Counted from the first letter of the stretch, positions 3,028 to 19,403 are shown. The stretch is DNA of 64,000 bases from Gammaproteobacteria bacterium (GCA_965238175.1 CBDEGZ010000003.1:1344001-1408000); one strand, 5' to 3'. Translations and numbers: made by a program. Notes: generated by a model not told the origin, from the letters alone.

Positions 3028-3411
3028 TTAATTATCTTCTTTCATCACTTCTTCGATTTTTGCTATAAAACTTAACCACTTTAGCCGTCTCTTGCATTGC
3101 GGACAAAATTTATCTTTCTCCAACGATGGTTTTTCAATCAATTTAACTATTTCAAAATCATAGTAGTCTATTCGAGTGCGATCTTTAAAACCAAACGCTT
3201 CTGGGCGATATGCACCAAAATCGACAGCACAAAAATTACATAACTGTAATTCTAACCCCTTGTAAACTTTGTAAATGCTATAGCTATGCTGCCCTTCTTT
3301 GAAGTGTTCAATCTCATGTTCAAAATTGCCACAATCATGACAGGGCGCACAACTAATTACTATCAATTCGGAATAGCATATAGGACATTGTTCTTTGTTC
3401 TTCGGTTTCAT
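3028..3411 (-). CDS. Cys-rich hypothetical protein (four CxxC motifs)
   Basis: CPIC, CHDC, CNFC, CPQC; a decayed paralog lies at 16285-16650. Confidence 0.75.
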   Translation of the reverse strand: MKPKNKEQCPICYSELIVISCAPCHDCGNFEHEIEHFKEGQHSYSIYKVYKGLELQLCNFCAVDFGAYRPEAFGFKDRTRIDYYDFEIVKLIEKPSLEKDKFCPQCKRRLKWLSFIAKIEEVMKEDN

Positions 3412-6634: not shown

Positions 6635-8479
6635 ATGAAAGAATTTTTTAAACTTAACAACATCGAAGTTGGTTTTGCCAACCATTCCGAAGTTTCTATT
6701 CAGAAAGGGAAGTTGAGTATTAACCTGCTTACGCCCAATTTAAAAATAACTCCGGAGCTTCATAACGGAATGTTAGACAGTGAAGAAGTGAACGTAGACT
6801 ATATTAGCTATGCAACAAGTTTGGCTATACCTGAAGGGAAATACAACACCCAGCTCGACTGCCCAGAAGACACCCCAAACGCAAACGTTTTTAATTTTCC
6901 GGAAAATGTTAATTTTTATGGTGTTCTTGATGTTCAAGAAGGGTATATACATCTAAAAGGTGAGTTAAGAAGCCGATATAGTCGTCGAACTATCCCCGTA
7001 GAAATAGTAAAGCAGTTTGATCCCAAACCCTTAATTCCTCCAAGAACCAGATTTAATTTAGGCGATGCAAAAATACAAGAGCCTCTAGAAGTCTATGAAT
7101 TAATCGTTCGGAAAGGCCGTCTAAATGAATTCCCAATGGAGATTTTAGCCTTTGAGAACTTGGAGAGTTTAGAGATTGAAGTTTCGTCCTGGCAGGGAGA
7201 CAAAAGCAGTGATTTTTCAGAAATCCCAGAAGCACTTTTTGAGTTAAAAAATCTACATACGCTATCCATTTCGGGAAGTAACATTAAAACACTTTCAGAA
7301 AAAGTAAGTGCACTCACAAAACTAGAAGAACTTCGTCTCTGCTACACTCAATTAAAAAGCCTACCCAATTCGCTATGTGATCTAAAGCGGTTACAATATT
7401 TGTCGTTGGACTGTAACGAGCTGGTTTCGCTGCCCGAAAATATCGGTTATCTTCCTGATTTAGAAGATCTCAGAATTGGATATAATCCGTTTACCTCATT
7501 ACCAAAATCGCTTACAGAAATTTCCAATATTAATCTTGAAGGGAAGCATAAAAAACTATTTTTAGATACTGCTTACAAAAGCAAGAATAAAAACGAAATA
7601 AATGAAAGTTTATTTAACCTGTTTAATCATCCCACACACAAAACTGCATTAGAAAAGGCTATACAAACAACGCCAGAATTAAAGAATTACAAAGATTTTT
7701 TATTGAATTGCAGCACACTAGCCACCTGTTTGGTGCCTGGAGATAAGCAAAAAGTAATTTCTGTTGGCGCTTCAAAAACCGGCGGAAGTCCAGATTTACC
7801 AAAAGGCTGGAAGCATCCCGCTGATCAAAATGGCAATTTTTATCTTTTTCATACGCAGATAAATTGCGAAGAAATAGGTCCTTATCAAAACTATCTGCCG
7901 AGAAAAGGGATGTTATACTTCTTTGTGAGTGACGAAGAATATGTCGAAGAGCCTTTGGTATTGTACTCAGAAGATGAAAACTTAGTCCGCATCCACTACA
8001 ACGAAGAAACAACATTTGTATTTTGTGATGACGTAGATGATGATGAATATAGAAACGAATTAGCCGTCAGCTTTCGAAACCATATATCTATTCCCGAATT
8101 TTATAACATCAAAAAAAATGCAACTGAAAGATTTCCGAAATATGCTCAATTCCTAAAAGATCAAGCAACACGTGACTTAGAAAACTTGAGGAATTTTGAT
8201 CAATTTGAACAATTCAATAAACACATTGATTTACTCCCTATTGATGGTGAACGAATGCATAGCATCAACAGTTTCGTCTTCACACAAGGTGAAACCCCAC
8301 AAGAACAAGCGGCAGACAAATTTGGCGGCGAGCCAACGGAATGGCTTGTGCTACTCAACATGGAAACTACGGGGGAGTTTATGTTTGGGGATGCAGGTAC
8401 ACTAACGTATTGCATGCATAAAAAAGACCTGGAAATTAAAGATTTTTCTAGAATTTATGCCAGCATAGAAAGTGGCTGA
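6635..8479 (+). CDS. Leucine-rich-repeat protein with C-terminal DUF1963/YwqG domain
   Basis: LxxLxxLxL/N.L..LP repeats at about aa 160-300; SKTGGSPDLP, QINCEEI, LPRKGMLYFF and FGDAGTL motifs. Confidence 0.85.
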   Translation: MKEFFKLNNIEVGFANHSEVSIQKGKLSINLLTPNLKITPELHNGMLDSEEVNVDYISYATSLAIPEGKYNTQLDCPEDTPNANVFNFPENVNFYGVLDVQEGYIHLKGELRSRYSRRTIPVEIVKQFDPKPLIPPRTRFNLGDAKIQEPLEVYELIVRKGRLNEFPMEILAFENLESLEIEVSSWQGDKSSDFSEIPEALFELKNLHTLSISGSNIKTLSEKVSALTKLEELRLCYTQLKSLPNSLCDLKRLQYLSLDCNELVSLPENIGYLPDLEDLRIGYNPFTSLPKSLTEISNINLEGKHKKLFLDTAYKSKNKNEINESLFNLFNHPTHKTALEKAIQTTPELKNYKDFLLNCSTLATCLVPGDKQKVISVGASKTGGSPDLPKGWKHPADQNGNFYLFHTQINCEEIGPYQNYLPRKGMLYFFVSDEEYVEEPLVLYSEDENLVRIHYNEETTFVFCDDVDDDEYRNELAVSFRNHISIPEFYNIKKNATERFPKYAQFLKDQATRDLENLRNFDQFEQFNKHIDLLPIDGERMHSINSFVFTQGETPQEQAADKFGGEPTEWLVLLNMETTGEFMFGDAGTLTYCMHKKDLEIKDFSRIYASIESG

Positions 8480-9223: not shown

Positions 9224-10497
9224 CATTGCTGTCCCGTTAAGAACGAATAAAGTAGGCCTGAACTCCGTCTAATTTGTTACAATGAAATCACGACAAGTCA
9301 TTGAAAAACATAAGGAGAACAGGCCATGGCCGATTGTAATACTATCTTCTCACAAATACTAAAAATGATACCGAGACATGAGTTTGAGCCCTTGGCAAAT
9401 CAGCATCACCGTGGTCGTTCGTTTCGAACAGCTTCACGTTGGTCTCAGTTTGTGACACTGGCAATGGCACAATTGTCGGTTCGAAACAGCTTGCGAGATA
9501 TTGTCGAGAACCTGTCAGCTCAAGCGCATCGTCTGTATCATTTGGGTAGTGTAAAATTATCTCGCTCCAATTTGTCCCGTATCAATGAAGATAAACCTTA
9601 CACACTTTATGAGGCCTTGTTTGGTAAATTGTTAGCACGTTGTCAGGGGTTAACGCCAGGACAATCTTTCCGTTTTAAAAACACATTGTATTCATTGGAT
9701 GCCTCTACGATTGACCTGTGTTTATCCGTTTTCCCGTGGGCTGACTTTCGTACAACGAAAGGCGCGATAAAGCTGCATGTTGAATTGAACCATTCAGGTT
9801 ATTTACCCGAGTTTGTCCCGGTAACGGAAGGGAAAACACATGACGTGACGGTGGGTCGCACACTGTCTTTTCCCAAGGGAAGTATTGTCGCTATTGATAG
9901 AGCGTACAATGACGATGCCTGGTATAAGCAATTGACAGACAAGGGGATATTCTTTGTAACGCGCCTCAAAACGCATGCTAAATATCGTGTGATAGGTCGG
10001 AGCGATGTTTTGAAAAGCAAAGGACTGACGTGTGACCAAACCATTGAATTCACCGGGTTCCAAACCGCAAAAAAATGCCCTGCTCAGTTACGTCGTATTG
10101 GTTATCGTGACCCGAAAACAGGGAAACACGATGTGTTTCTCACCAATAATTTTACACTTGCAGCGAAAACGATTGCTGATATTTATAAAGCACGTTGGCA
10201 AGTGTAATTATTTTTTAAATGGATAAAACAAAACCTTAAAATCAAATCATTCATCGGCACAAGTAAGAATGCGGTGATGACACAGGTATGGATAGCAATG
10301 TGCATTTACTTACTGATGGTATTCATCAAATTTCAGTCCAGACTCAAGAAGAGCATGCAACAAATCTTACGTGTATTGCAACGTAATCTCTTTGATAAAC
10401 GGTCGTTGTTAGCGTTGTTGCAAGACGACCCGTTACCCGATGAGATAAATACAGTTCAGCAATTGGTATTGGTTTGAAAGTTAACGGGACAGCAGTG
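9224..10497 (+). mobile_element. IS4-family insertion sequence (inactivated)
   Basis: 17-bp IRs CATTGCTGTCCCGTTAA / TTAACGGGACAGCAGTG with one mismatch. Confidence 0.9.
9326..10477 (+). pseudogene. IS4 transposase with nonsense mutation
   Basis: DASTI, DRAY and YKARWQV*LFFKWIKQNLKI: the catalytic Glu codon of the YREK motif reads TAA at 10205-10207 and the frame continues to 10477. Confidence 0.9.
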
Positions 10498-10813
10498 ATT
10501 GCCAGATATAAACTCTTTTCTTGTTACAGTGTTTACCGGTGTTCTAATGTTTGTAGAATATACAATTAGATTTGGCTTGCTTTCCAGTAATAACCTTTAA
10601 TGACACCCTTAGTTTTTTATGTGGTTCACTAAGTGTCTTCGGAGTATTATTTGTTCGAAAGTCGGTGGTTTCAGAATTAAAACGAATTAGAAATAGAGGC
10701 CTGAGACTGAGAGGTAAATGTGAAATAGTTTAGAGTCAGGTCTTTTCATATCGGATTACTTATTCAGTTTAATCGCAAAATATAAATCTAAAAAAATGAG
10801 GTCGTACTCTAAG

Positions 10814-10972
10814 CCTTTTAAGAAAAATTATAGGGCTTGCTGAGTGACTAACATCAATCCAATGGTGACTTAACCAACTGCACGACAACAAAACTAGTCT
10901 CCTGGCATACAACAATGATTGTAATGCTTTTTACTCCCACAGGGGTAAGCGACTTTTTTCGTGGTTTAATAT
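10814..10972. repeat. Diverged direct copy of 13659-13816 (SEC-C tail of the peptidase gene plus downstream DNA)
   Basis: Shared TTATAGGGCTTGCTGAGTGACTAACATCAATC and CCTGGCATACAACAATG...TTTTTACTCCCACAGGGG. Confidence 0.85.
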
Positions 10973-11247
10973 GGCATGTTTGATTGGCTGGGGTTTGGGA
11001 ATAGCTGGTGACAAAAGCTAACGAAAAGAGGTGACGTATTTATTTTACGAGCCATTATTACGGACTATTTGTGGAAAATAAATCTGACTCCAAATATTCG
11101 TATGGATAAGCTTTTCTTTCTGCTCCTTTAAAATAGTCCATATTATGTTCGATTTCTAGATCCATAATTTTTCCTTTCATTAAAATCTGCTTCTCACTTT
11201 TCTCTGAAGGTTAGCGATGATAATATCGCTCTTTAAGGAGGAAGGCC

Positions 11248-11283
11248 GTGTTCAAAACACTGCAGAAGTCAGAGCACCGTTAG
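11248..11283 (+). CDS. Putative leader peptide MFKTLQKSEHR
   Basis: TAAGGAGG SD at 11234-11241, 6 nt before GTG; followed by hairpins and a T-run before the aminotransferase. Confidence 0.35.
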   Translation: MFKTLQKSEHR

Positions 11284-11401
11284 TTATCCCTATTCACATA
11301 GGTTATCGAAACAGTTTAGCTCGCTTTCTGGTTGGTTTGTCTCGAGCTTTTTGTTAATTAGTCAGAAACATAAATGTGTAGATACTTAGGGATACTTTAA
11401 A

Positions 11402-12793
11402 ATGTCGAAGCAAACTTCAAAAAAAACAAATGAATTAATCTCTCCACTTTCCGGACTTAGACGTCTTATTGAAACTAATCAAATTGAAGCACCTAGCGAC
11501 GACTTTCTTAACGATAAGTCTGCAGTCTGGTCTCCGCATAATAAGATCATAAACGTTACACCTGGTCCCGCCTTTGGGTCTGAATTGGTTAATCAATTTG
11601 CATCTACCCAAACAAGAGGTATGCGGGGTCCAGGCGCAGCGGGTTTTTTTACAGCAGTTCGCCAAGAATACGGAAAATTAGTAGATATGCCAAAAGGAGG
11701 AATGCCCCTTTTCTTCACCGGCTCTGGGACATCTGCTACCGAGGCTGCTGCAGGCTCTTTGCGTACTCCGGATGAAATGAATTCCGACAAGAAAGTCATC
11801 TTAACTCTGGAGATCGGCAGCTTCAGTACGGCAATGGGCCATTGCGTTGAAAACCTGGGTAGGGGTGTGATTCGCCTAAAAGGTGAAGTTGGTGAAGATC
11901 TGCCGTTTGGTCAGTGCAGAGAAGTCTTAGAAAAAGACATTGAAGGTAACATCAAGATGGTTATGGCTCCGCATAACGAAACGGGCACGGGAGTTACTGC
12001 TAGCATTCAGAAATTACGTGACTTGCTGGATGAACTAAAACATCCTGCACTTCTTGTAATCGACGGCATTTCTTCTATCGCCAGTATGCCATGCTCTATG
12101 GCTAAAATGGGAATCGATATGCTGATTGGATGTAGCCAAAAGGGTTTGATGGCTACGCCAGGTATCGGAATGATTACGCTCAGCCCAAAAGCGGTGCAGA
12201 AAATTCGTGAGTCTGATCAACAGATGAAAGAAGGGGGGCTTAAAAAAGGCGAACACTACCTTAATCTTGCCAAGATGATTGAGGCTATGGAAACCGCTGG
12301 CCTACACTTAGAAACGCCACCAAATTACGCCCAATTAGCCGTGGCTTTGGATACGCTCGCTATCGAGGGCATTGATCGAGTTTGCGAGCGCCATAGAGAT
12401 TGTTCTGAAATCTTCCGTGCCGCCGTACAGGCTGCGGGCTTTGAGCTGGTCGTAAAAGATATCAATACGGCATCTAATGCGGTGACTGCAATCAAAGCAC
12501 CAGAAGGTTATGGAGAGAAAGAAATCCAAGAAGTTCTATGGATAATGTACAACAAGCACGCCGTAGAAGCTGCCGCTATTCCAGGCTATCCAGATCTGGG
12601 CTGGCGTCTTTGCGCTACAGGCGGTATCCAGCCTCAACATGCACTCATGGCTTCAATAGCCTTCTTGAAGTCGGTTGAAGAAGCTGGAATACCGGTTGAT
12701 TATGATAAGGGATTGGTTGCTGCGTCTAAGGTGTATGGAGAGGTTCTCAGGTATCATCGCCCTCTCCCTGGACTTGATATGTACGGAAGATAA
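11402..12793 (+). CDS. PLP-dependent class V aminotransferase (alanine/serine-glyoxylate aminotransferase-like)
   Basis: TPGP, GSGTSATEA, HNETGTG, DGISS and SQKGL (PLP lysine) motifs. Confidence 0.9.
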   Translation: MSKQTSKKTNELISPLSGLRRLIETNQIEAPSDDFLNDKSAVWSPHNKIINVTPGPAFGSELVNQFASTQTRGMRGPGAAGFFTAVRQEYGKLVDMPKGGMPLFFTGSGTSATEAAAGSLRTPDEMNSDKKVILTLEIGSFSTAMGHCVENLGRGVIRLKGEVGEDLPFGQCREVLEKDIEGNIKMVMAPHNETGTGVTASIQKLRDLLDELKHPALLVIDGISSIASMPCSMAKMGIDMLIGCSQKGLMATPGIGMITLSPKAVQKIRESDQQMKEGGLKKGEHYLNLAKMIEAMETAGLHLETPPNYAQLAVALDTLAIEGIDRVCERHRDCSEIFRAAVQAAGFELVVKDINTASNAVTAIKAPEGYGEKEIQEVLWIMYNKHAVEAAAIPGYPDLGWRLCATGGIQPQHALMASIAFLKSVEEAGIPVDYDKGLVAASKVYGEVLRYHRPLPGLDMYGR

Positions 12794-12814
12794 GTCTGTC
12801 AAAATATGAAGAAA

Positions 12815-12862
12815 CTGAAGGAAGGGCACTATTACATTAACTAAAGAAAGTCCTTCCTTCAG
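12815..12862. terminator. Stem-loop after the aminotransferase
   Basis: CTGAAGGAAGG / CCTTCCTTCAG 11-bp inverted repeat; no clear U-tract. Confidence 0.35.
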
Positions 12863-13058
12863 CGGCATAATAGTTGGGGTCATTTTGACGCCAATTAATT
12901 TTATAGTTATGCCAGACAATTATTAAATCAAGAACTGCCTATTTTTGCAGATACCACACAAAATCAGTACAAAATTATTAGCGATGATAAAATCAAAATT
13001 CAACTTGAGTAGTCGTTTATTTCCCTGCTTTGATGAAAACTCTATTTAAAGAGATTGA

Positions 13059-13559
13059 TTGAGAAAAATGGCAAAAATGACTTACCCTTGTCCTTGCGCC
13101 AGTGGTAAACTTTATCCTGACTGTTGTGAACTGATGCATAGGGGGAAAATTGACTCACCCAATGCAGAACAAACCATGCGTGCACGTTATACTGCATTTT
13201 GTTATGGTGAAATTGGCTATTTAGTGGATACCACGCATCCCAGAAAACGGCGTATTGGAGATTCATTTTCATTATCCAAACTGATCAAAAAGATCCGTTG
13301 GGTGGGCCTTAAAATTATCGAGTATCAATCTGGGAGTGAAGTCTCTTACGTCGACTTTGTCGCTTTCCGTATTGAACAGGGTCAGTTTGCACAACAACAC
13401 GAGCGTTCAAAATTTGTCTTCGTCAAAGATGAATGGTTTTATTTCGAAGGTGAAGAATTACCCTCAATAAAACTACAACGTAATGAACTTTGTTTTTGTG
13501 GCAGTGGTAAGAAATTTAAAAAATGCCATGGAACTTTGCCTGGTAAGTTGCGGCATTAA
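13059..13559 (+). CDS. ychJ: YchJ/UPF0225 family SEC-C motif protein
   Basis: CPCASGK..CC, MRARYTAF, YLVDTTHP, HERSKF and a C-terminal SEC-C motif; true start probably ATG 13068 or 13077. Confidence 0.85.
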   Translation: MRKMAKMTYPCPCASGKLYPDCCELMHRGKIDSPNAEQTMRARYTAFCYGEIGYLVDTTHPRKRRIGDSFSLSKLIKKIRWVGLKIIEYQSGSEVSYVDFVAFRIEQGQFAQQHERSKFVFVKDEWFYFEGEELPSIKLQRNELCFCGSGKKFKKCHGTLPGKLRH

Positions 13560-13736
13560 ATGGGCAGACTCGATTTGATTTATCAGTAACACCAGCAATT
13601 AAATAGTCAATATGATACTTGACCACTTTATTATTCAATCCTCCCAATCCCTCTTAGTCCTTTAAGAAAATTATAGGGCTTGCTGAGTGACTAACATCAA
13701 TCACTATAGTGATTTACCAATTGCACGATAATAAAA

Positions 13737-14579
13737 CTAATCCCCTGGCATACAACAATGCTTGTAACGCTTTTTACTCCCACAGGGGCAAGCGGCTTTT
13801 TTCCGCGGTTTAATATCATTCGCAATATTCATCACATCCTGTTGATAAATTTTTGATAGCGAAGAGAATAATTGTGGATGCTTATTTTTTAGCATTTTCG
13901 GGCGTTCAAAAAAATATTCAGAAGCAACCGCAAAAAATTCCACTCTATTCGTTGTCGCATAATCCCTTATATTGCTTTTGTTATTATTTATCGCTTTGAT
14001 TTTTTGTTCGACTAACTCAAACCACGGGATAGAAAATGCATATTCTTTTAACCGTTCGGGATAACCATCACATTCGCCATCGGCCATATCGACCAAATGT
14101 ACAAATTCATGAATACCAACATTTTGTTTATCTTTACTATTTTCAAATCCTTGATGAAGTGCTGGTCTACATAGTGCCAGTTTTCCAGCCATTGGCCCTG
14201 TTCCCACCATGCCTGTGATATTAGAATCTGGCTGGCCACATTCGAAATTTGTATTAAAACTGGCAGGTAATAAATAGACTGCATTGAGGTTAAAGTAATG
14301 CCATTTGGAAAAACCCCAAACTGGAATAACTGCACTTGCTGCTACCAAAAGACGGTCTTCATCAGACACTGTGAATTGCCCCACTTCAATTTCTGTTGTC
14401 TGCAAAAATAGTGACACACGTTGTTCAAAAAGTAGCTTGTGTTCTTCACTCAATACGCGATAAAAGGTCACTTTCTCTATCAGAAACCTGGACCATTGTT
14501 GTCGCCATTGAAGTTCTTTGTGTTGTTTTTCTAACCCAAGAAATTTTTGTAGAACTTCTTTGATCCAATTAATCATCAT
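13737..14579 (-). CDS. MtfA-like zinc-dependent peptidase (M90) with C-terminal SEC-C motif
   Basis: NVGIHEFVHLVD, YATTNRVEFFAVASEYFFERP and CPCGSKKRYKHCC. Confidence 0.85.
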   Translation of the reverse strand: MMINWIKEVLQKFLGLEKQHKELQWRQQWSRFLIEKVTFYRVLSEEHKLLFEQRVSLFLQTTEIEVGQFTVSDEDRLLVAASAVIPVWGFSKWHYFNLNAVYLLPASFNTNFECGQPDSNITGMVGTGPMAGKLALCRPALHQGFENSKDKQNVGIHEFVHLVDMADGECDGYPERLKEYAFSIPWFELVEQKIKAINNNKSNIRDYATTNRVEFFAVASEYFFERPKMLKNKHPQLFSSLSKIYQQDVMNIANDIKPRKKAACPCGSKKRYKHCCMPGD

Positions 14580-14753
14580 TTAATCTCGTAAATTCTCAAA
14601 AAAATATAACAGCTCTTGTTTTATCACTTCGGATTTTAGTAAATGTTATTGTTAAAGTTTTCACAAGTGAAGAGATAAATCAGGTCAGATTGAACCTGCT
14701 ACATTTTAACGGATACATTAAATAGGCGACAATATGCCTTTAGGAGTATCCAA

Positions 14754-15065
14754 ATGACCAGCAACAGAAAACCATACAAAACCTATACCCGAGAATTCAA
14801 ACTAGAAGCGTTACGCTTGATGGAGCAATCAGATAAACCGTCATCTGAGATTGCCGCTGAACTTGGTATACGGCGTAATCAGCTCTATAAATGGAAAGAA
14901 CAACTGACCGACAAAGGTGATACTGCATTCCCAGAACAACGTGGAAGGCCTAAGAAAGAAGCACAAAGTGAACTCACCACCTTACGCCAAGATAATGCAC
15001 GGCTGAAGGAGGAAGTTGAGATATTAAAAAAGGCCGCGGTGTACTTTGCAGGCGAACTCAAGTGA
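14754..15065 (+). CDS. IS3 transposase OrfA
   Basis: Protein identical to 5184..5495. Confidence 0.95.
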   Translation: MTSNRKPYKTYTREFKLEALRLMEQSDKPSSEIAAELGIRRNQLYKWKEQLTDKGDTAFPEQRGRPKKEAQSELTTLRQDNARLKEEVEILKKAAVYFAGELK

Positions 15066-15922
15066 AGTACGCCTTTATTAAAATACAACGTCGCCATCAC
15101 TCTGTGTCGTTATTATGTCGCACCCTGACTGTCTCAGTCAGTGGTTATTATGATTGGTTAGACAGGCCTCAAAGTAAGACACACTCAACGAATCAACGGT
15201 TACTGACGAAAATAAGATGTTTTCATCAAGCTAGTTTTAAGCGTTATGGTTCACCTCGGATACATCGAGACCTACTCGATTCAGGTGAAAAAGTAAGTCG
15301 ACCGCGTGTTGCACGTTTGATGAAGACTGCTGGCATTCAATCGAAGATGGCCAAACGGTTTGTGATTACAACCAATTCAAAAAATACCACAGCACCTGCA
15401 CCCGATAGGCTCAAACGTGAATTTCGTGTCAATGAAACAAATAAAGCCTGGGTAGCTGACACGACCTTTATTCGTACTCGGCAAGGTTGGTTATATTTGG
15501 CTACCATGATGGACTTGTATTCACGGCAAATTATTGGCTGGGCGATGTCTGAGCGTAATGACACCAAGCTAGTCACTGATGCGTTAACGATGTCGCTGTC
15601 ACGCAGAGACAAGGCAAAAGATGTGATTGTCCATTCCGACCAAGGCAGCACTTATGCCTCGGGTGATTATCGAAAGCTCATTAAAGATAATGGCTTCCTT
15701 TGTAGTATGAGCCGAAAAGGTGAATGCCATGATAATGCGGTCGCTGAAAGTTTCTTCGGCAGCCTCAAAACAGAGTTGGTTGATGATGAGGATTATCGAA
15801 CACGTAGCGATGCCAAACAAAGCCTATTTCACTATATTGAAGTGTTTTATAATCGAAGACGGAGGCATTCTTATTTAGGCTATGTTAGCCCTGTAGAATT
15901 TGAGCGGGCAAATGCCCCTTAG
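15062..15922 (+). CDS. IS3 transposase OrfB
   Basis: Protein identical to 4327..5187. Confidence 0.95.
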   Translation: MKYAFIKIQRRHHSVSLLCRTLTVSVSGYYDWLDRPQSKTHSTNQRLLTKIRCFHQASFKRYGSPRIHRDLLDSGEKVSRPRVARLMKTAGIQSKMAKRFVITTNSKNTTAPAPDRLKREFRVNETNKAWVADTTFIRTRQGWLYLATMMDLYSRQIIGWAMSERNDTKLVTDALTMSLSRRDKAKDVIVHSDQGSTYASGDYRKLIKDNGFLCSMSRKGECHDNAVAESFFGSLKTELVDDEDYRTRSDAKQSLFHYIEVFYNRRRRHSYLGYVSPVEFERANAP

Positions 15923-16284
15923 TTATTTGCTCCGTTAAAGTGTTGCAACCTCAGATCATTTTAATATACTCTCTCTACGTTTACCCTTAATAAATTAACA
16001 AATAGTATGTTTAAGAATTACCATGACTCTTATTAAATGTTTCTAATGTTGTCGAAGAATATCCAGTAATGAGTTTAGCAATAGAGGGCGATACTGAATT
16101 TGATCAAGACCATTTTACTTTTTTAAGAACAATAAAAAGCAACCAACTGATTACCATGGATGGAAATGGTAAAAGATTAAAATAGACACTTTAGTTAACC
16201 CAACAATATGAAACATACATTTCAAGTAGAGCAATTTATTTAAAACCAGATATTTTGATGATTTAGAAAAATCAAAATCCGCAG

Positions 16285-16650
16285 ATGAAACCGAAGAACA
16301 ATGTTCGATATGCTATTCTGAATTGATAGTAATTAGTTGTGTGCCCTGTCATGATTGTGGCAATTTTGAACATGAGATTGGACACTTTAAAGAAGGGCTG
16401 CATATTTATAGTTTACAAGGGGCTAGAATTACAGTTATGTAATTTTTTTGCCGTTGATTTTGGTTCATATTGTCCAGAAGCGTTTGGTTTTAATGATCGT
16501 ACTCAAATAGATTATTCTGATCTTGAGGTAGTTAAATTGATTGAGAAACCATTGTTGGAGAAAGATAAATTTTGTCCGCAATGCAAGAGATGGCTGAAGT
16601 GGTTAAGTTTTATAGCAAAAATCGAAGAATTGAAGAAAGAAATTACTTAA
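16285..16650 (+). pseudogene. Frameshifted paralog of the Cys-rich ORF 3028..3411
   Basis: ATGAAACCGAAGAAC start and YKGLELQLCNF...EKDKFCPQCKR tail match; small deletions break the frame; about 70 bp of upstream DNA is also shared. Confidence 0.85.
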
Positions 16651-16679
16651 TGTTTGGGCGAAATTAGAGTAAAGCATTT

Positions 16680-16753
16680 AGGGTCAGGTCTAGCTATGAA
16701 TGCACTTTCGAAAAGACTAATATGCTAGATGATTGATAGTTAGACCTGACCCT
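16680..16753. repeat. 13-bp perfect inverted repeat pair (GGGTCAG/CTGACCC type)
   Basis: AGGGTCAGGTCTA (16680-16692) and TAGACCTGACCCT (16741-16753). Confidence 0.75.
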
Positions 16754-16777
16754 TAGTTTTAAAGTTAATTATAAATA

Positions 16778-17371
16778 TTACCTATAATGAGATCCTCCAA
16801 CCCACAATACAAAAGAACGACGAACACCTTTAGTTACTTTTGTTACTCTATGCAGCATATATGAAGGGAAAATAAAGACTGCGCCTTTTGCTTTATTCGC
16901 TGTTATGAAACTATTATCTTCATAATTTCCTCCTGTGAATAATTGTAAATCTCCCCCTTCATATTCACTGGGGTCAGATAATTGAACCGTGATAGAGATT
17001 TTTCGATGTGAAACGCCTTGACCCATATCTTGATGCCAGTGGTAATGACCTTTGTCTGTAGCGTCATATTCTGTATATTGTATTTGATCTTGGATGTGAA
17101 ATAAGTCAAAGTTCCAAAGCTCATCGTTGGCAGTAACAGCCATATCGGATAATTTTTCATATAACCAATACCAGCTATCCTCTTGAGGGATCCATTTAAC
17201 TTTTGAAGAACGAAAATCATCTCCCGCCCCCATAGCTATACCTTTTTGAGCTTCTAAAGATTGAACTCTGGTATGAATTTCATTTAATTCTTCTTTATTA
17301 AAACCTTCTTCATACAAGTAATGATTCTGGGAATCATTTTCCTTTTGGTTAAAGTTTAAACTATTAAACAT
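16778..17371 (-). CDS. 2OG-Fe(II) oxygenase (P4Hc/PKHD-type hydroxylase-like)
   Basis: YHWHQD (HxD), RKISITVQLSDPSEYEGGDL, FPSYMLHRVTKVTKGVRRSFV. Confidence 0.9.
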   Translation of the reverse strand: MFNSLNFNQKENDSQNHYLYEEGFNKEELNEIHTRVQSLEAQKGIAMGAGDDFRSSKVKWIPQEDSWYWLYEKLSDMAVTANDELWNFDLFHIQDQIQYTEYDATDKGHYHWHQDMGQGVSHRKISITVQLSDPSEYEGGDLQLFTGGNYEDNSFITANKAKGAVFIFPSYMLHRVTKVTKGVRRSFVLWVGGSHYR

Positions 17372-17841
17372 AATGTTTGTTTTCTAAGACCAACATTTAC
17401 TAAACTTATACCCGCTCTTTGGTGAAGAAAATTAAAGTACCGTTTTCGTTATATTTTCTACACCTCCTAAATCAAACTAAATCGCCAAGAGCTGGTAATA
17501 TTGCAGTATCTATTGTTCCTATTATCCTCCATGAAAGTGTTAAAAAATATGTCCTTATAACTTACCCTTTTTACACATTTGCTCTCTAACCTTAGCAGTT
17601 GATATTTCATGTGCCTCAGATGGGTACGCATTCTATTATAACTCCCCTTTCTATAATTAATAGACTCAATATCCGAAGTTTTAATAATGTTAACAATTTA
17701 GTTTTTAGGAGTTATTCCAGATAATATCATGTGAAGTATTATCTAAAGATGAGGAGAAGCCATTTAAGTTAAGTATAAACAGAATCGATTAAGAGCAGGA
17801 GCACAAGGTCAGGCCTGGTTATTAGCCATCTAGTACTAATA

Positions 17842-19067
17842 TGTAGAAATTCAGATTTGATCTGACAGTTACCCAATTATCAGTAACCGACTGTCAGGTT
17901 AAGTTTAATTCACAAACTTTTCCTTCCAGATAGCTTGTCCGTCGATGAGTGTTTCCATCGGCGTCCTCCCGCAGCACATTTTGCCTTGGTGAGTTCGTTG
18001 AGTATTGTATTTGAGCAACCATTCGTCAAGGTCGAGTTGCAGTTCATCAATCGATTGGTAAATTTTCTTACGCAAAGCGACTTGATAAAACTCATTGAGG
18101 ATCGTCTTATGGAATCGCTCACAAATACCATTCGTCTGAGGTGATTTGACCTTGGTTTTGGTGTGTTCGATATTGTTCAACGCCATATAAAGCTGATAAT
18201 CATGCTGGTCAGCTCGCCCACAATACTCCGTCCCTCTATCTGTCAAAATGCGCAACATAGGCAAACGTTGTTCTTCGTAGAATGGGAGGACGCGGTCATT
18301 GAGCATGTCAGCTGCCGTAATCGGTGTTTTAGTCGGGTACAGTTTCGCGTGAGCGACCTTGCTGTAAGTATCAACAAACGTTTGTTGATAAACCCGACCA
18401 ATGCCTTTGAAAGTACCGACATAGTAAGTATCTTGCGAGCCAAGATAACCAGGGTGTGCCGTCTCTATCTCGCCACAAGCCTCATCGTCGTCTTTTTTGC
18501 GTTCCATCGCCGCGACTTGAGACTCAGTGAGGATCAAGCCTTCACCAGCTACCTTATCAGACAATGCCTTCAGGCGATCTTTAAAGCAAGCAAGACCATG
18601 ACGAAGCCAGATACAACGAACGCCACTGGGTGAGACAAATGTTCCCCGTTTGCGCAGCTCGTTACTGGTGCGCGTTTGACCATGTGCGGGCTCTTCCAGT
18701 GCATACTCGAGCACAACGGTTTCAATAGCCGGGTCGATTCTGTTTTTAAGATTTGGGGTACGCCGATTACGATCAAACAAGGCTTCTACACCGCCTTCAT
18801 CAGCCGCTTCTTTGTAGCGATAAAATGTATCTCTGGACAAACCCATCATCTTGCAGGCTTTTGAGACATTGCCGAGTTCTTCAGCGAGATTGAGTAGACC
18901 AACTTTATGTTTTATAACTTTGTCATTAGTATGAATCATGAGAGTTACCTCTTTGTGTTTTGATGTTTACGTTGCAGTTACATCAAAGCGGGTAACTCTC
19001 ACTAAATCAAGCGTCGCTACGCTCCGCTTGATTTAGTGATGTGTCAGATTGGGTCTAAACTTCTACA
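17842..19067 (-). mobile_element. IS481-family insertion sequence, copy 1 (1226 bp)
   Basis: TGTAGAA...TTCTACA ends; flanked by direct repeat ACTAATA. Confidence 0.95.
17905..18939 (-). CDS. IS481-family transposase
   Basis: PGYLGSQDT, LTDRGTEYCG, PQTNGICERFH motifs. Confidence 0.95.
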   Translation of the reverse strand: MIHTNDKVIKHKVGLLNLAEELGNVSKACKMMGLSRDTFYRYKEAADEGGVEALFDRNRRTPNLKNRIDPAIETVVLEYALEEPAHGQTRTSNELRKRGTFVSPSGVRCIWLRHGLACFKDRLKALSDKVAGEGLILTESQVAAMERKKDDDEACGEIETAHPGYLGSQDTYYVGTFKGIGRVYQQTFVDTYSKVAHAKLYPTKTPITAADMLNDRVLPFYEEQRLPMLRILTDRGTEYCGRADQHDYQLYMALNNIEHTKTKVKSPQTNGICERFHKTILNEFYQVALRKKIYQSIDELQLDLDEWLLKYNTQRTHQGKMCCGRTPMETLIDGQAIWKEKFVN

Positions 19068-19403
19068 ACTAATAGCTGACTCTGAGGGATCCTCACGAAA
19101 TTGGTCTGGATGTTTAACTCCACAGCAGCTCTCCCATGAGTTGCTGTATGCATTCAAATGCCAAGCTCCGATCTGTAGATACCATCTCTCACAACCAATC
19201 GCAAGCTACTATTTTAAGTCACTTGTGATTGATAAAACTGAACAGATTCAATTGTTCTGTTTTTAAATTCCTGAAGAATTGTCTCACCACATTATTATGC
19301 CCAAAACATTTTGTGGGGCAGGCTCTTCCAACAATTACGACGACTCATACTGAAGTCGATGGGAACAAACTCTCCCACTTTATCGAAAATAAACTTCCCT
19401 TAA

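Follow-up and report, generated by a model that had tools for sequence, protein, structure and literature searches.

Probable remains of TIRYT-type terminal inverted repeats in a gammaproteobacterial region of integron-like appearance

This study revealed that a 7.1-kb region (positions 10729-17812) of a 64,000-nucleotide stretch from a Gammaproteobacteria bacterium (GCA_965238175.1, CBDEGZ010000003.1:1344001-1408000; the whole stretch is hereafter called the window) probably holds three remains of the terminal inverted repeats (TIRs) of a transposase, and that the genes lying between these repeat arms are probably not cassettes. The repeats are of the GGGGWSAS class and the transposase is of the TIRYT type, a RAYT-like tyrosine HUH transposase of TnpA-Y1 subclass 2.1. 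We put the probability of this reading at about 0.8. An earlier note on the same DNA had described a tandem array of genes, each bracketed by matched TGACCCC/GGGGTCA inverted repeats, and had proposed an integron-like capture system distinct from attC integrons, with a Y1 enzyme acting in trans. The genome holding the window (3.35 Mb) is referred to as G000, and the other members of the genus that were compared as G001, G002, G003, G005 and G006. In Di Nocera et al. 2013 (PMC3733652), TIRYT genes and TIRtron elements are described with the common motif GGGGWSAS, and their arm families are given as moderate in size and often arranged as dimers or clusters. In Quentin et al. 2018 (PMC6006769), TIRYTs constitute TnpA-Y1 subclass 2.1; a C-terminal helix-turn-helix domain (HTH; Bac_DnaA_C, HTH_23 or HTH_28) is described for this subclass. 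The three remains are the following:

16680-16753, no strand assigned: hairpin-forming doublet of two inverted TIR arms, 16680-16701 and 16732-16753 (fold, matrix and alignment with G005)
17805-17827, minus strand: single degenerate TIR arm (23-nt matrix score 19.4)
10732-10743, minus strand: probable single TIR arm relic, outer core only (core matrix score 16.4)

The doublet is a gene-less, non-autonomous derivative of a TIRtron, and the other two sites are decayed single arms. The doublet spans 74 bp and comprises 22-nt arms, 91% complementary, on either side of a 30-nt spacer. Its predicted DNA fold (-17.8 kcal/mol, z score -6.4) was equalled by none of 200 shuffles, and doublets of G005 gave z scores of -6.6 and -6.7. 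When the hairpin was aligned with five G005 doublets, 13 columns of the left arm and 8 of the right arm were invariant. A 23-nt weight matrix was built from 14 G005 arms, with the reversed genome as control, and its three best matches in the whole G000 genome were at 16680, 16731 and 17805, the last of which was the top match (19.4). As these three matches fall within 1.2 kb, the weight rests on their clustering and not on single scores. At a score of at least 16, the 12-nt core matrix gave 26 matches in the genome and 11 in the control; three of the 26 (10732, 16680 and 16742) lie within this region. The arm at 10732 matches 16677-16691 at 14 of 15 letters, as judged by eye, and the DNA around it does not fold (z +0.64). 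The window arms comprise one dimer between convergent genes and two singles, as in the intergenic singles, dimers and groups of TIRtrons.

Two further candidates around the right-hand arm were rejected. A second doublet split by the IS481-family insertion sequence (IS) at 17841-19067 was considered; the site with the IS removed folds like its shuffles (z -0.02, 145 of 300 as good), and the partner arm beyond the IS is weak. A possible relic of a TIRYT gene 3' end at 17784-17795 was a 12-letter match by eye to the end of the G005 gene, with an ambiguous alignment.

The arms find their closest counterpart in the sister species G005. Within one mismatch, the hairpin 13-mer occurs 17 times in G005 and 4 times in a backwards-pattern control; G005 alone stands out, the control count being at least equal to the 13-mer count in G001, G003 and G006. 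The G005 arms fit GGGGWSAS fully. Hairpin doublets were found at 7818/7869, 10122/10172, 11947 and 14794/14844 of locus L023 (G005:C1:1420000-1439999). In the same locus, an open reading frame (ORF) of 281 aa at 15633-16478 lies between inverted arms at 15588 and 16478 which have the same sequence as the window hairpin. This ORF matches Pfam Y1_Tnp (PF01797, E 4.7e-15) and NCBIfam NF047646, the tyrosine transposase associated with repetitive extragenic palindromes (REPs), at 86.2 bits against a cut-off of 80. The G005 doublets form part of longer tandem duplicates (352 nt at 99.4%) that extend into the start of the following ORF, so the array there needs no capture mechanism. Near the TIRYT gene, L023 7100-16530 shows TIR doublets and ORFs (379, 390 and 237 aa) in alternation; these ORFs have common starts, a sub-threshold likeness to DUF637 (hemagglutinin-type, E 0.006-0.009) and small ORFs after each. 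This arrangement resembles orphan toxin-immunity-like modules, a weak naming.

The association between motif and enzyme extends well beyond the genus. A search confirmed 591 relatives of the G005 protein, of which the best 80 were retained, and 51 of those 80 had both 1.5-kb flanks. The motif was found at most 250 nt upstream in 40 of the 51 loci and its complement downstream in 29, with both in 25; the counts for the wrong orientation were 3 and 2. In the first 45 of these loci, most of the best inverted repeats share their opening dozen letters with the window arms. The motif is old and tied to the TIRYT enzyme, and the start of the arm is common to homologues of many phyla.

G000 itself carries Pfam Y1_Tnp genes outside the window, and two small repeat families, seen among the intergenic copies of the motif in the whole genome, adjoin them. 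With up to 6 mismatches, 10 copies of family A and 15 of family B were counted, none of them in the window. One G000 protein of 281 aa is 45.6% identical to the G005 protein and has a different, related arm family; it is encoded at 971 kb, about 373 kb from the window. An arm-gene-arm unit of family A, 773 bp in length, is present twice at 100% identity with unrelated flanks (C3:925192-925964 and C3:631058-631830), and an 80-bp doublet of family B is present in three copies at 95-96%. Judging from these identical 773-bp copies and the 80-bp copies, the related arm families of G000 are likely to be mobile. The units that moved are of the form arm-gene-arm or arm-spacer-arm: they themselves end in arms, and the G-run faces outward. 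The 773-bp unit encodes a Y1 protein of 236 aa that scores 73.5 bits on NF047646, less than the cut-off of 80. Partial copies of the unit occur at 3181881 and at 2790809, and it looks recently mobile. Both full copies are near repeated 1-kb segments and an ORF with a weak DUF637 likeness.

The statement in the earlier note that GGGGWCAG-type repeats accompany RAYT-like Y1 HUH nucleases was borne out, as it fits the GGGGWSAS repeats of TIRYTs, the Y1 genes outside the window and the G005 gene with the same arms. This link accounts for the sites at 16676, 16746 and 17805 and for the left edge of the region near 10732. A tblastn search with three TIRYT proteins returned nothing in the window below E 0.1.

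Comparison with known systems places the window arms closest to the TIRtrons. In G005 and in two arm families of G000, an approximately 280-aa RAYT-like Y1 HUH protein lies between long GGGGWSAS-type inverted repeats, and the arm families (that of G005 and two others in G000) are modest in size, as singles, dimers and groups near the gene. The differences are that the window holds gene-less remains only (one doublet and two decayed singles), that the matching gene is absent from G000, that the motif starts with A instead of its first G in the window arms, and that Pfam at E up to 0.01 gave no HTH for the G005 protein. The REPIN-RAYT system, as described by Bertels and Rainey 2011 (PMC3116915), is similar in that short inverted repeats around a spacer form a non-autonomous hairpin, which is proposed to be mobilised in trans by a Y1 transposase with the same repeats on both sides of its gene. 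Classical REPs, according to PMC3733652, are short palindromes with a GTAG tag and a high copy number. The arms found here differ in that they begin with a G-run motif, without GTAG. They number from 2 to about 17 per genome (2 exact in G000, 17 in G005), whereas classical REPs have hundreds of copies. The IS200/IS605 elements differ in having subterminal hairpins, not long inverted ends, and a shorter TnpA. Their likeness lies in the Y1 HUH chemistry on single-stranded hairpin ends, which is also covered in PMC6006769, and they are the source of the mechanism considered here. The intact doublet at 16680-16753 is able to fold as a hairpin in single-stranded DNA, and, by analogy with IS200/IS605 and TnpA-REP, such doublets would be cut and rejoined as single-stranded DNA by a transposase provided in trans. 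Since the transposase with the exact arms is present in G005 and not in G000, the window copies are most likely stranded relics.

Several observations weigh against this reading. There is no transposase with exactly the window arms in G000, where the exact hairpin 13-mer occurs only in the two arms of the hairpin itself, which makes the copy number of this arm family tiny. The substitution of A for the first G is found in both hairpin arms, and the arms at 17805 and 10732 depart from GGGGWSAS at further positions. Taken singly, the 23-nt matrix scores are not significant, as the reversed-genome control has 5 matches at 16 or above and 2 at 20 or above; the membership of 17805 and 10732 consequently rests on clustering and on the short core. 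For the G005 protein, Pfam at E up to 0.01 returned only Y1_Tnp and no C-terminal HTH in the roughly 140 residues past the Y1 domain. In contigs from public sequencing runs, no joint was seen at the doublet or at the edge of a unit, which is uninformative either way, and neither cutting nor excision nor transposition was observed. The stretch is present as contigs in two runs from a single sample, which may themselves be where the assembly came from; one seawater run has only a relative of the IS3-family element, and the joints that were found are IS-to-IS adjacencies known from other loci. Finally, homology to paralogous blocks ends at about 16673, restarts at 16757 and ends at 17813, all within a few bases of arms, and the relic reading explains this closeness only by the shortness of the 127-nt spacer between the convergent genes.

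The other features of the region and its surroundings are as follows:

10807-10972, minus strand: 3' end of the peptidase gene (SEC-C tail) with downstream flank, a truncated copy (88% over 168 bp to 13651-13816)
11402-12793, plus strand: class-V aminotransferase gene, 463 aa (Pfam PF00266, E 1.3e-16)
12874-12894, no strand assigned: conserved palindrome with a 9-bp stem, not a TIR (DNA fold z -3.55)
13059-13559, plus strand: ychJ-like gene with SEC-C motifs and an NTF2-like middle domain (Pfam PF17775, E 4.2e-25, and PF02810)
13737-14579, minus strand: M90 (MtfA-like) metallopeptidase gene with a SEC-C tail (Pfam PF06167, E 3.8e-56, and PF02810)
14691-15953, plus strand: IS3-family insertion sequence (NCBIfam NF033516, 336 bits; 3-bp target duplication 14688-14690 / 15954-15956)
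16285-16650, plus strand: Cys-rich pseudogene, first half broken (61% identity by tblastn, DNA 88%)
16778-17371, minus strand: 2-oxoglutarate (2OG)-Fe(II) oxygenase gene, 197 aa (Pfam PF13640, E 3.3e-14)
17841-19067, minus strand: IS481-family insertion sequence (NCBIfam NF033577, 279 bits; 6-bp target duplication 17835-17840 / 19068-19073)

The region is a species-specific rearranged mosaic in which ordinary genes and gene debris, including one pseudogene and one gene fragment, occur together with two insertion sequences, of the IS3 and IS481 families. The translation of 10807-10972 gives a SEC-C-like tail followed by a stop, corresponding to the copied last codons of the peptidase gene, and the Cys-rich relic has stops within the N-terminal part when compared by tblastn with an intact 127-aa paralogue (window 3028-3411, minus strand). 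Every NCBIfam match of the aminotransferase is far under its cut-off. The IS3-family element has 7 full-length copies in the genome (99.8-100% identity), and its uninterrupted target site (at 14688-14690) is present in G002; the IS481-family element has 57 full-length copies genome-wide. The IS load is accordingly heavy, at 57 and 7 full copies with 99-100% identity, some of them nested or adjacent, and an IS4-like fragment (9224-10501) lies just upstream of the region. Targeting of arms by these elements was considered and rejected: the flanks of the 7 IS3 and 57 IS481 full copies are AT-rich targets, few of them near an arm. Nine extra bases common to some IS3 matches were attributed to chance. 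Rfam at gathering thresholds gave 0 matches in the whole window. A 614-aa protein that combines leucine-rich repeats with a DUF1963 domain is also encoded in the IS-rich upstream part (window 6635-8479). The aminotransferase gene is preceded by a 36-nt stretch (window 11192-11227) that contains a small hairpin and recurs at 92% in G006 directly upstream of the peptidase gene (L012 5314-5349), and also upstream of the G006 aminotransferase gene; it may represent a shared regulatory signal. Elsewhere in G000, contig C1 (10,967 bases) has a G+C content of 55.8% compared with 40.4% for the chromosome, and may be foreign or a contaminant.

With regard to the bracketing repeats, all the strings quoted in the earlier note are present where it had placed them, yet their pairing around the genes is at the level of chance, both for the five units and genome-wide. 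The best pair, 11085-11098 / 12869-12882, is complementary at 12 of 14 positions, and the weaker ones were compared by eye: about 8 of 13 for the ychJ unit, 8 of 9 for the relic unit, and an indel required for the peptidase and 2OG pairs. When the two intergenic flanks of each gene were compared, the best inverted match of 14-mers was at least 12 for 89 of 400 sampled G000 genes and for 54 of 400 shuffled flank pairs. For the five claimed units, the share of 200 shuffles equalling the observed match was 0.43, 0.195, 0.675, 0.945 and 0.975; thus, 43% of the shuffles of the best unit's own flanks also reach 12 of 14. In a genome-wide test of 92,190 pairs of TGAC and GTCA separated by 300-3000 nt, the inner ten bases were compared with random pairings. 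The mean match was 2.58 of 10 as against 2.60, and 74 pairs (0.080%) matched at 8 or more positions, as against 0.068% in the null. Complementarity of the inner flanks, the test of which had been proposed in the earlier note, is therefore not above chance, and stricter motifs gave the same outcome with few pairs. The 7-mer does not behave as a repeat of the whole genome: it and its complement have 95 copies in the genome on both strands, 2 of them in the window, which is under the expectation from base composition by hand arithmetic. The 6-mer is denser in the region (6 copies per 7.1 kb, compared with about 0.2 per kb elsewhere); coding sequence contains three of the six copies, and a single hairpin contributes two, one in each arm.

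Of the ten quoted sites, seven do not rise above noise or represent something else, as judged by the core matrix and, for one, by a conserved palindrome. The sites at 11085, 13620 and 15983 have core matrix scores of at most 7.4, a level met about once per 5 kb, and none of the quoted sites that are not arms exceeds 7.4. At a core score of 8 or more, the genome has 644 matches and the control 729. The site at 13555 overlaps the ychJ stop codon, and that at 14683 is not conserved in G002. The supposed collapsed junction at 12876/12886 is the palindrome at 12874-12894, whose core matrix score is below 6. G002 keeps this palindrome through a compensatory change on both arms, which indicates that the palindrome is conserved and the motif is not. 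It is probably a protein or RNA signal, perhaps an operator, of the spacer between the aminotransferase and ychJ genes. The remaining paired motifs are chance matches in AT-rich spacers.

The aminotransferase gene has orthologues in G002, G003, G005 and G006 at 72-78% DNA identity, the ychJ-like gene is syntenic with it in G002, and the peptidase gene is 87% identical in G002 and G006. These three genes are vertically shared (72-87% DNA identity), and their neighbours differ. In G002 (L011, G002:C50, 7447-10051), the ychJ and peptidase genes are separated by four extra ORFs of 253, 105, 151 and 273 aa (about 2.85 kb), in place of the 164 nt found in G000. None of the orthologous gene borders in G002, G003, G005 and G006 had an arm-like site scoring 16 or above, and the highest core score was 14.6. 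Homology between G002 and G000 stops at 13561, at the ychJ stop codon and inside a weak quoted site, resumes at 13726, about 95 nt from the 13620 site, and stops again at 16000, 9-17 nt from the 15983 site. All three points are at or near conserved coding ends or in diverged spacer and have no arm-like score, in a comparison of species-level relatives. DNA search gave no match for 16000-17812 in any of the other genus members, and the 2OG protein was not found in them either, save for a remote 42% match in G005. Within G000, the block 16757-17813 has a 93% identical counterpart at C3:515753-516815. This copy at 515 kb lacks an arm at the left edge, and its 8.5-kb surroundings contain no matrix match of 11 or above; a family-B-like arm at its right edge was a resemblance by eye only, for which the ungapped matrix gave nothing at 11 or above, and was rejected. 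No clean empty site was found for this copy, its flanks being far apart in the relatives in which both were found.

G000 does possess a classical integron, at 2157-2176 kb of C3. Its integrase (C3:2175053-2175916) is the only match above the TIGR02249 cut-off (396.5 bits, cut-off 265) and lies about 770 kb from the window; a separate match covers a short N-terminal piece of the integrase, with one TAG stop. The integrase faces an array in which about 25 small ORFs, oriented alike, are split by attC sites of 60-130 nt. An attC profile made from 12 spacers of this integron and used at E up to 10 revealed further clusters at about 2017-2029 kb (2017000-2029500) and 1288-1289 kb (1288100-1289450), with no integrase nearby, and none of its 57 matches falls within the window. 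The studied region resembles such an array in the picture of tandem genes separated by imperfect inverted repeats that the earlier note had drawn. In contrast, its genes face both ways, are larger and are mostly conserved elsewhere in the genus. The true cassette arrays of G000 look nothing like the studied region.

Capture of the genes at 11085-17812 as cassettes by a Y1 HUH enzyme in trans, in an integron-like manner without attC, is the least probable of the explanations that we considered. It is correct as to the enzyme family, since the motif belongs to a family of Y1 HUH transposases with genes elsewhere in G000, and it can draw on the 2OG block, which lies between two arm sites and has its 93% copy at 515 kb, and on several G005 doublets that are 0.7-2.8 kb apart with ORFs between them. 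The array itself and the capture did not hold up, however: the chance-level complementarity, the noise or palindrome at seven of the ten sites, the lack of arm sites at the orthologous borders, the vertical descent of the three genes and the tandem duplications around the G005 doublets all tell against them. Furthermore, the claimed bracket is opposite in orientation to the units that did move, whose G-run faces outward from arms at their own ends, so that the supposed units are host DNA between elements. A more limited proposal, that neighbouring pairs of TIR arms let the TIRYT enzyme excise or join the DNA between them and so shuffle gene-sized blocks at arm edges, as for the 2OG block or the ORF units between the G005 doublets, is also very unlikely, if a little less so. 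If true, it would constitute a single-strand, HUH-driven counterpart of cassette exchange and would give HUH transposases a testable role in gene shuffling.

The proximity of block edges to arms would also be expected if dispersed TIR copies had served as points of breakage or recombination that joined the Cys-rich and 2OG blocks, in which case they would mark the borders of the mosaic and not sites of capture. The homology that ends at about 16673 stops a few bases before the doublet, that restarting at 16757 begins 3-4 bases after it, and that ending at 17813 enters the 17805-17827 arm; moreover, this part of the region gave no DNA match in any other genus member. As the doublet fills 74 of the 127 nt between the convergent genes, a block edge would fall within about 25 nt of it anyway and two of the three coincidences are nearly forced, while the copy at 515 kb lacks both a left-edge arm or matrix match and a clean empty site in relatives. 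We therefore consider such a role of the arms to be improbable, though the likeliest of these alternatives. The hairpin could instead be a two-way terminator whose likeness to TIR arms arose by chance, as it has a strong fold, separates two convergent ORFs at their stop codons and has a short T run after it. This has a very low probability, given the 13 and 8 invariant columns shared with G005 doublets that flank a Y1 gene, the same arm start beside Y1 genes of unrelated bacteria, and arms of 22 nt with a 30-nt loop, which are unlike the short GC stems of the upstream terminator at 12802-12875. Termination may nevertheless be a side effect of the hairpin.

The reading as remains of TIRYT-type TIRs means that the integron-like pattern arose largely by chance in AT-rich spacers, to which a few real relics add, and carries little weight beyond annotation. 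The arms can be recognised and masked as remains of mobile elements, and the true cassette system of G000 is the attC integron at 2.16-2.18 Mb. The finding adds one more lineage, in relic form, to the little-studied TIRtron/TIRYT class, a kind of element that has itself been known since 2013.

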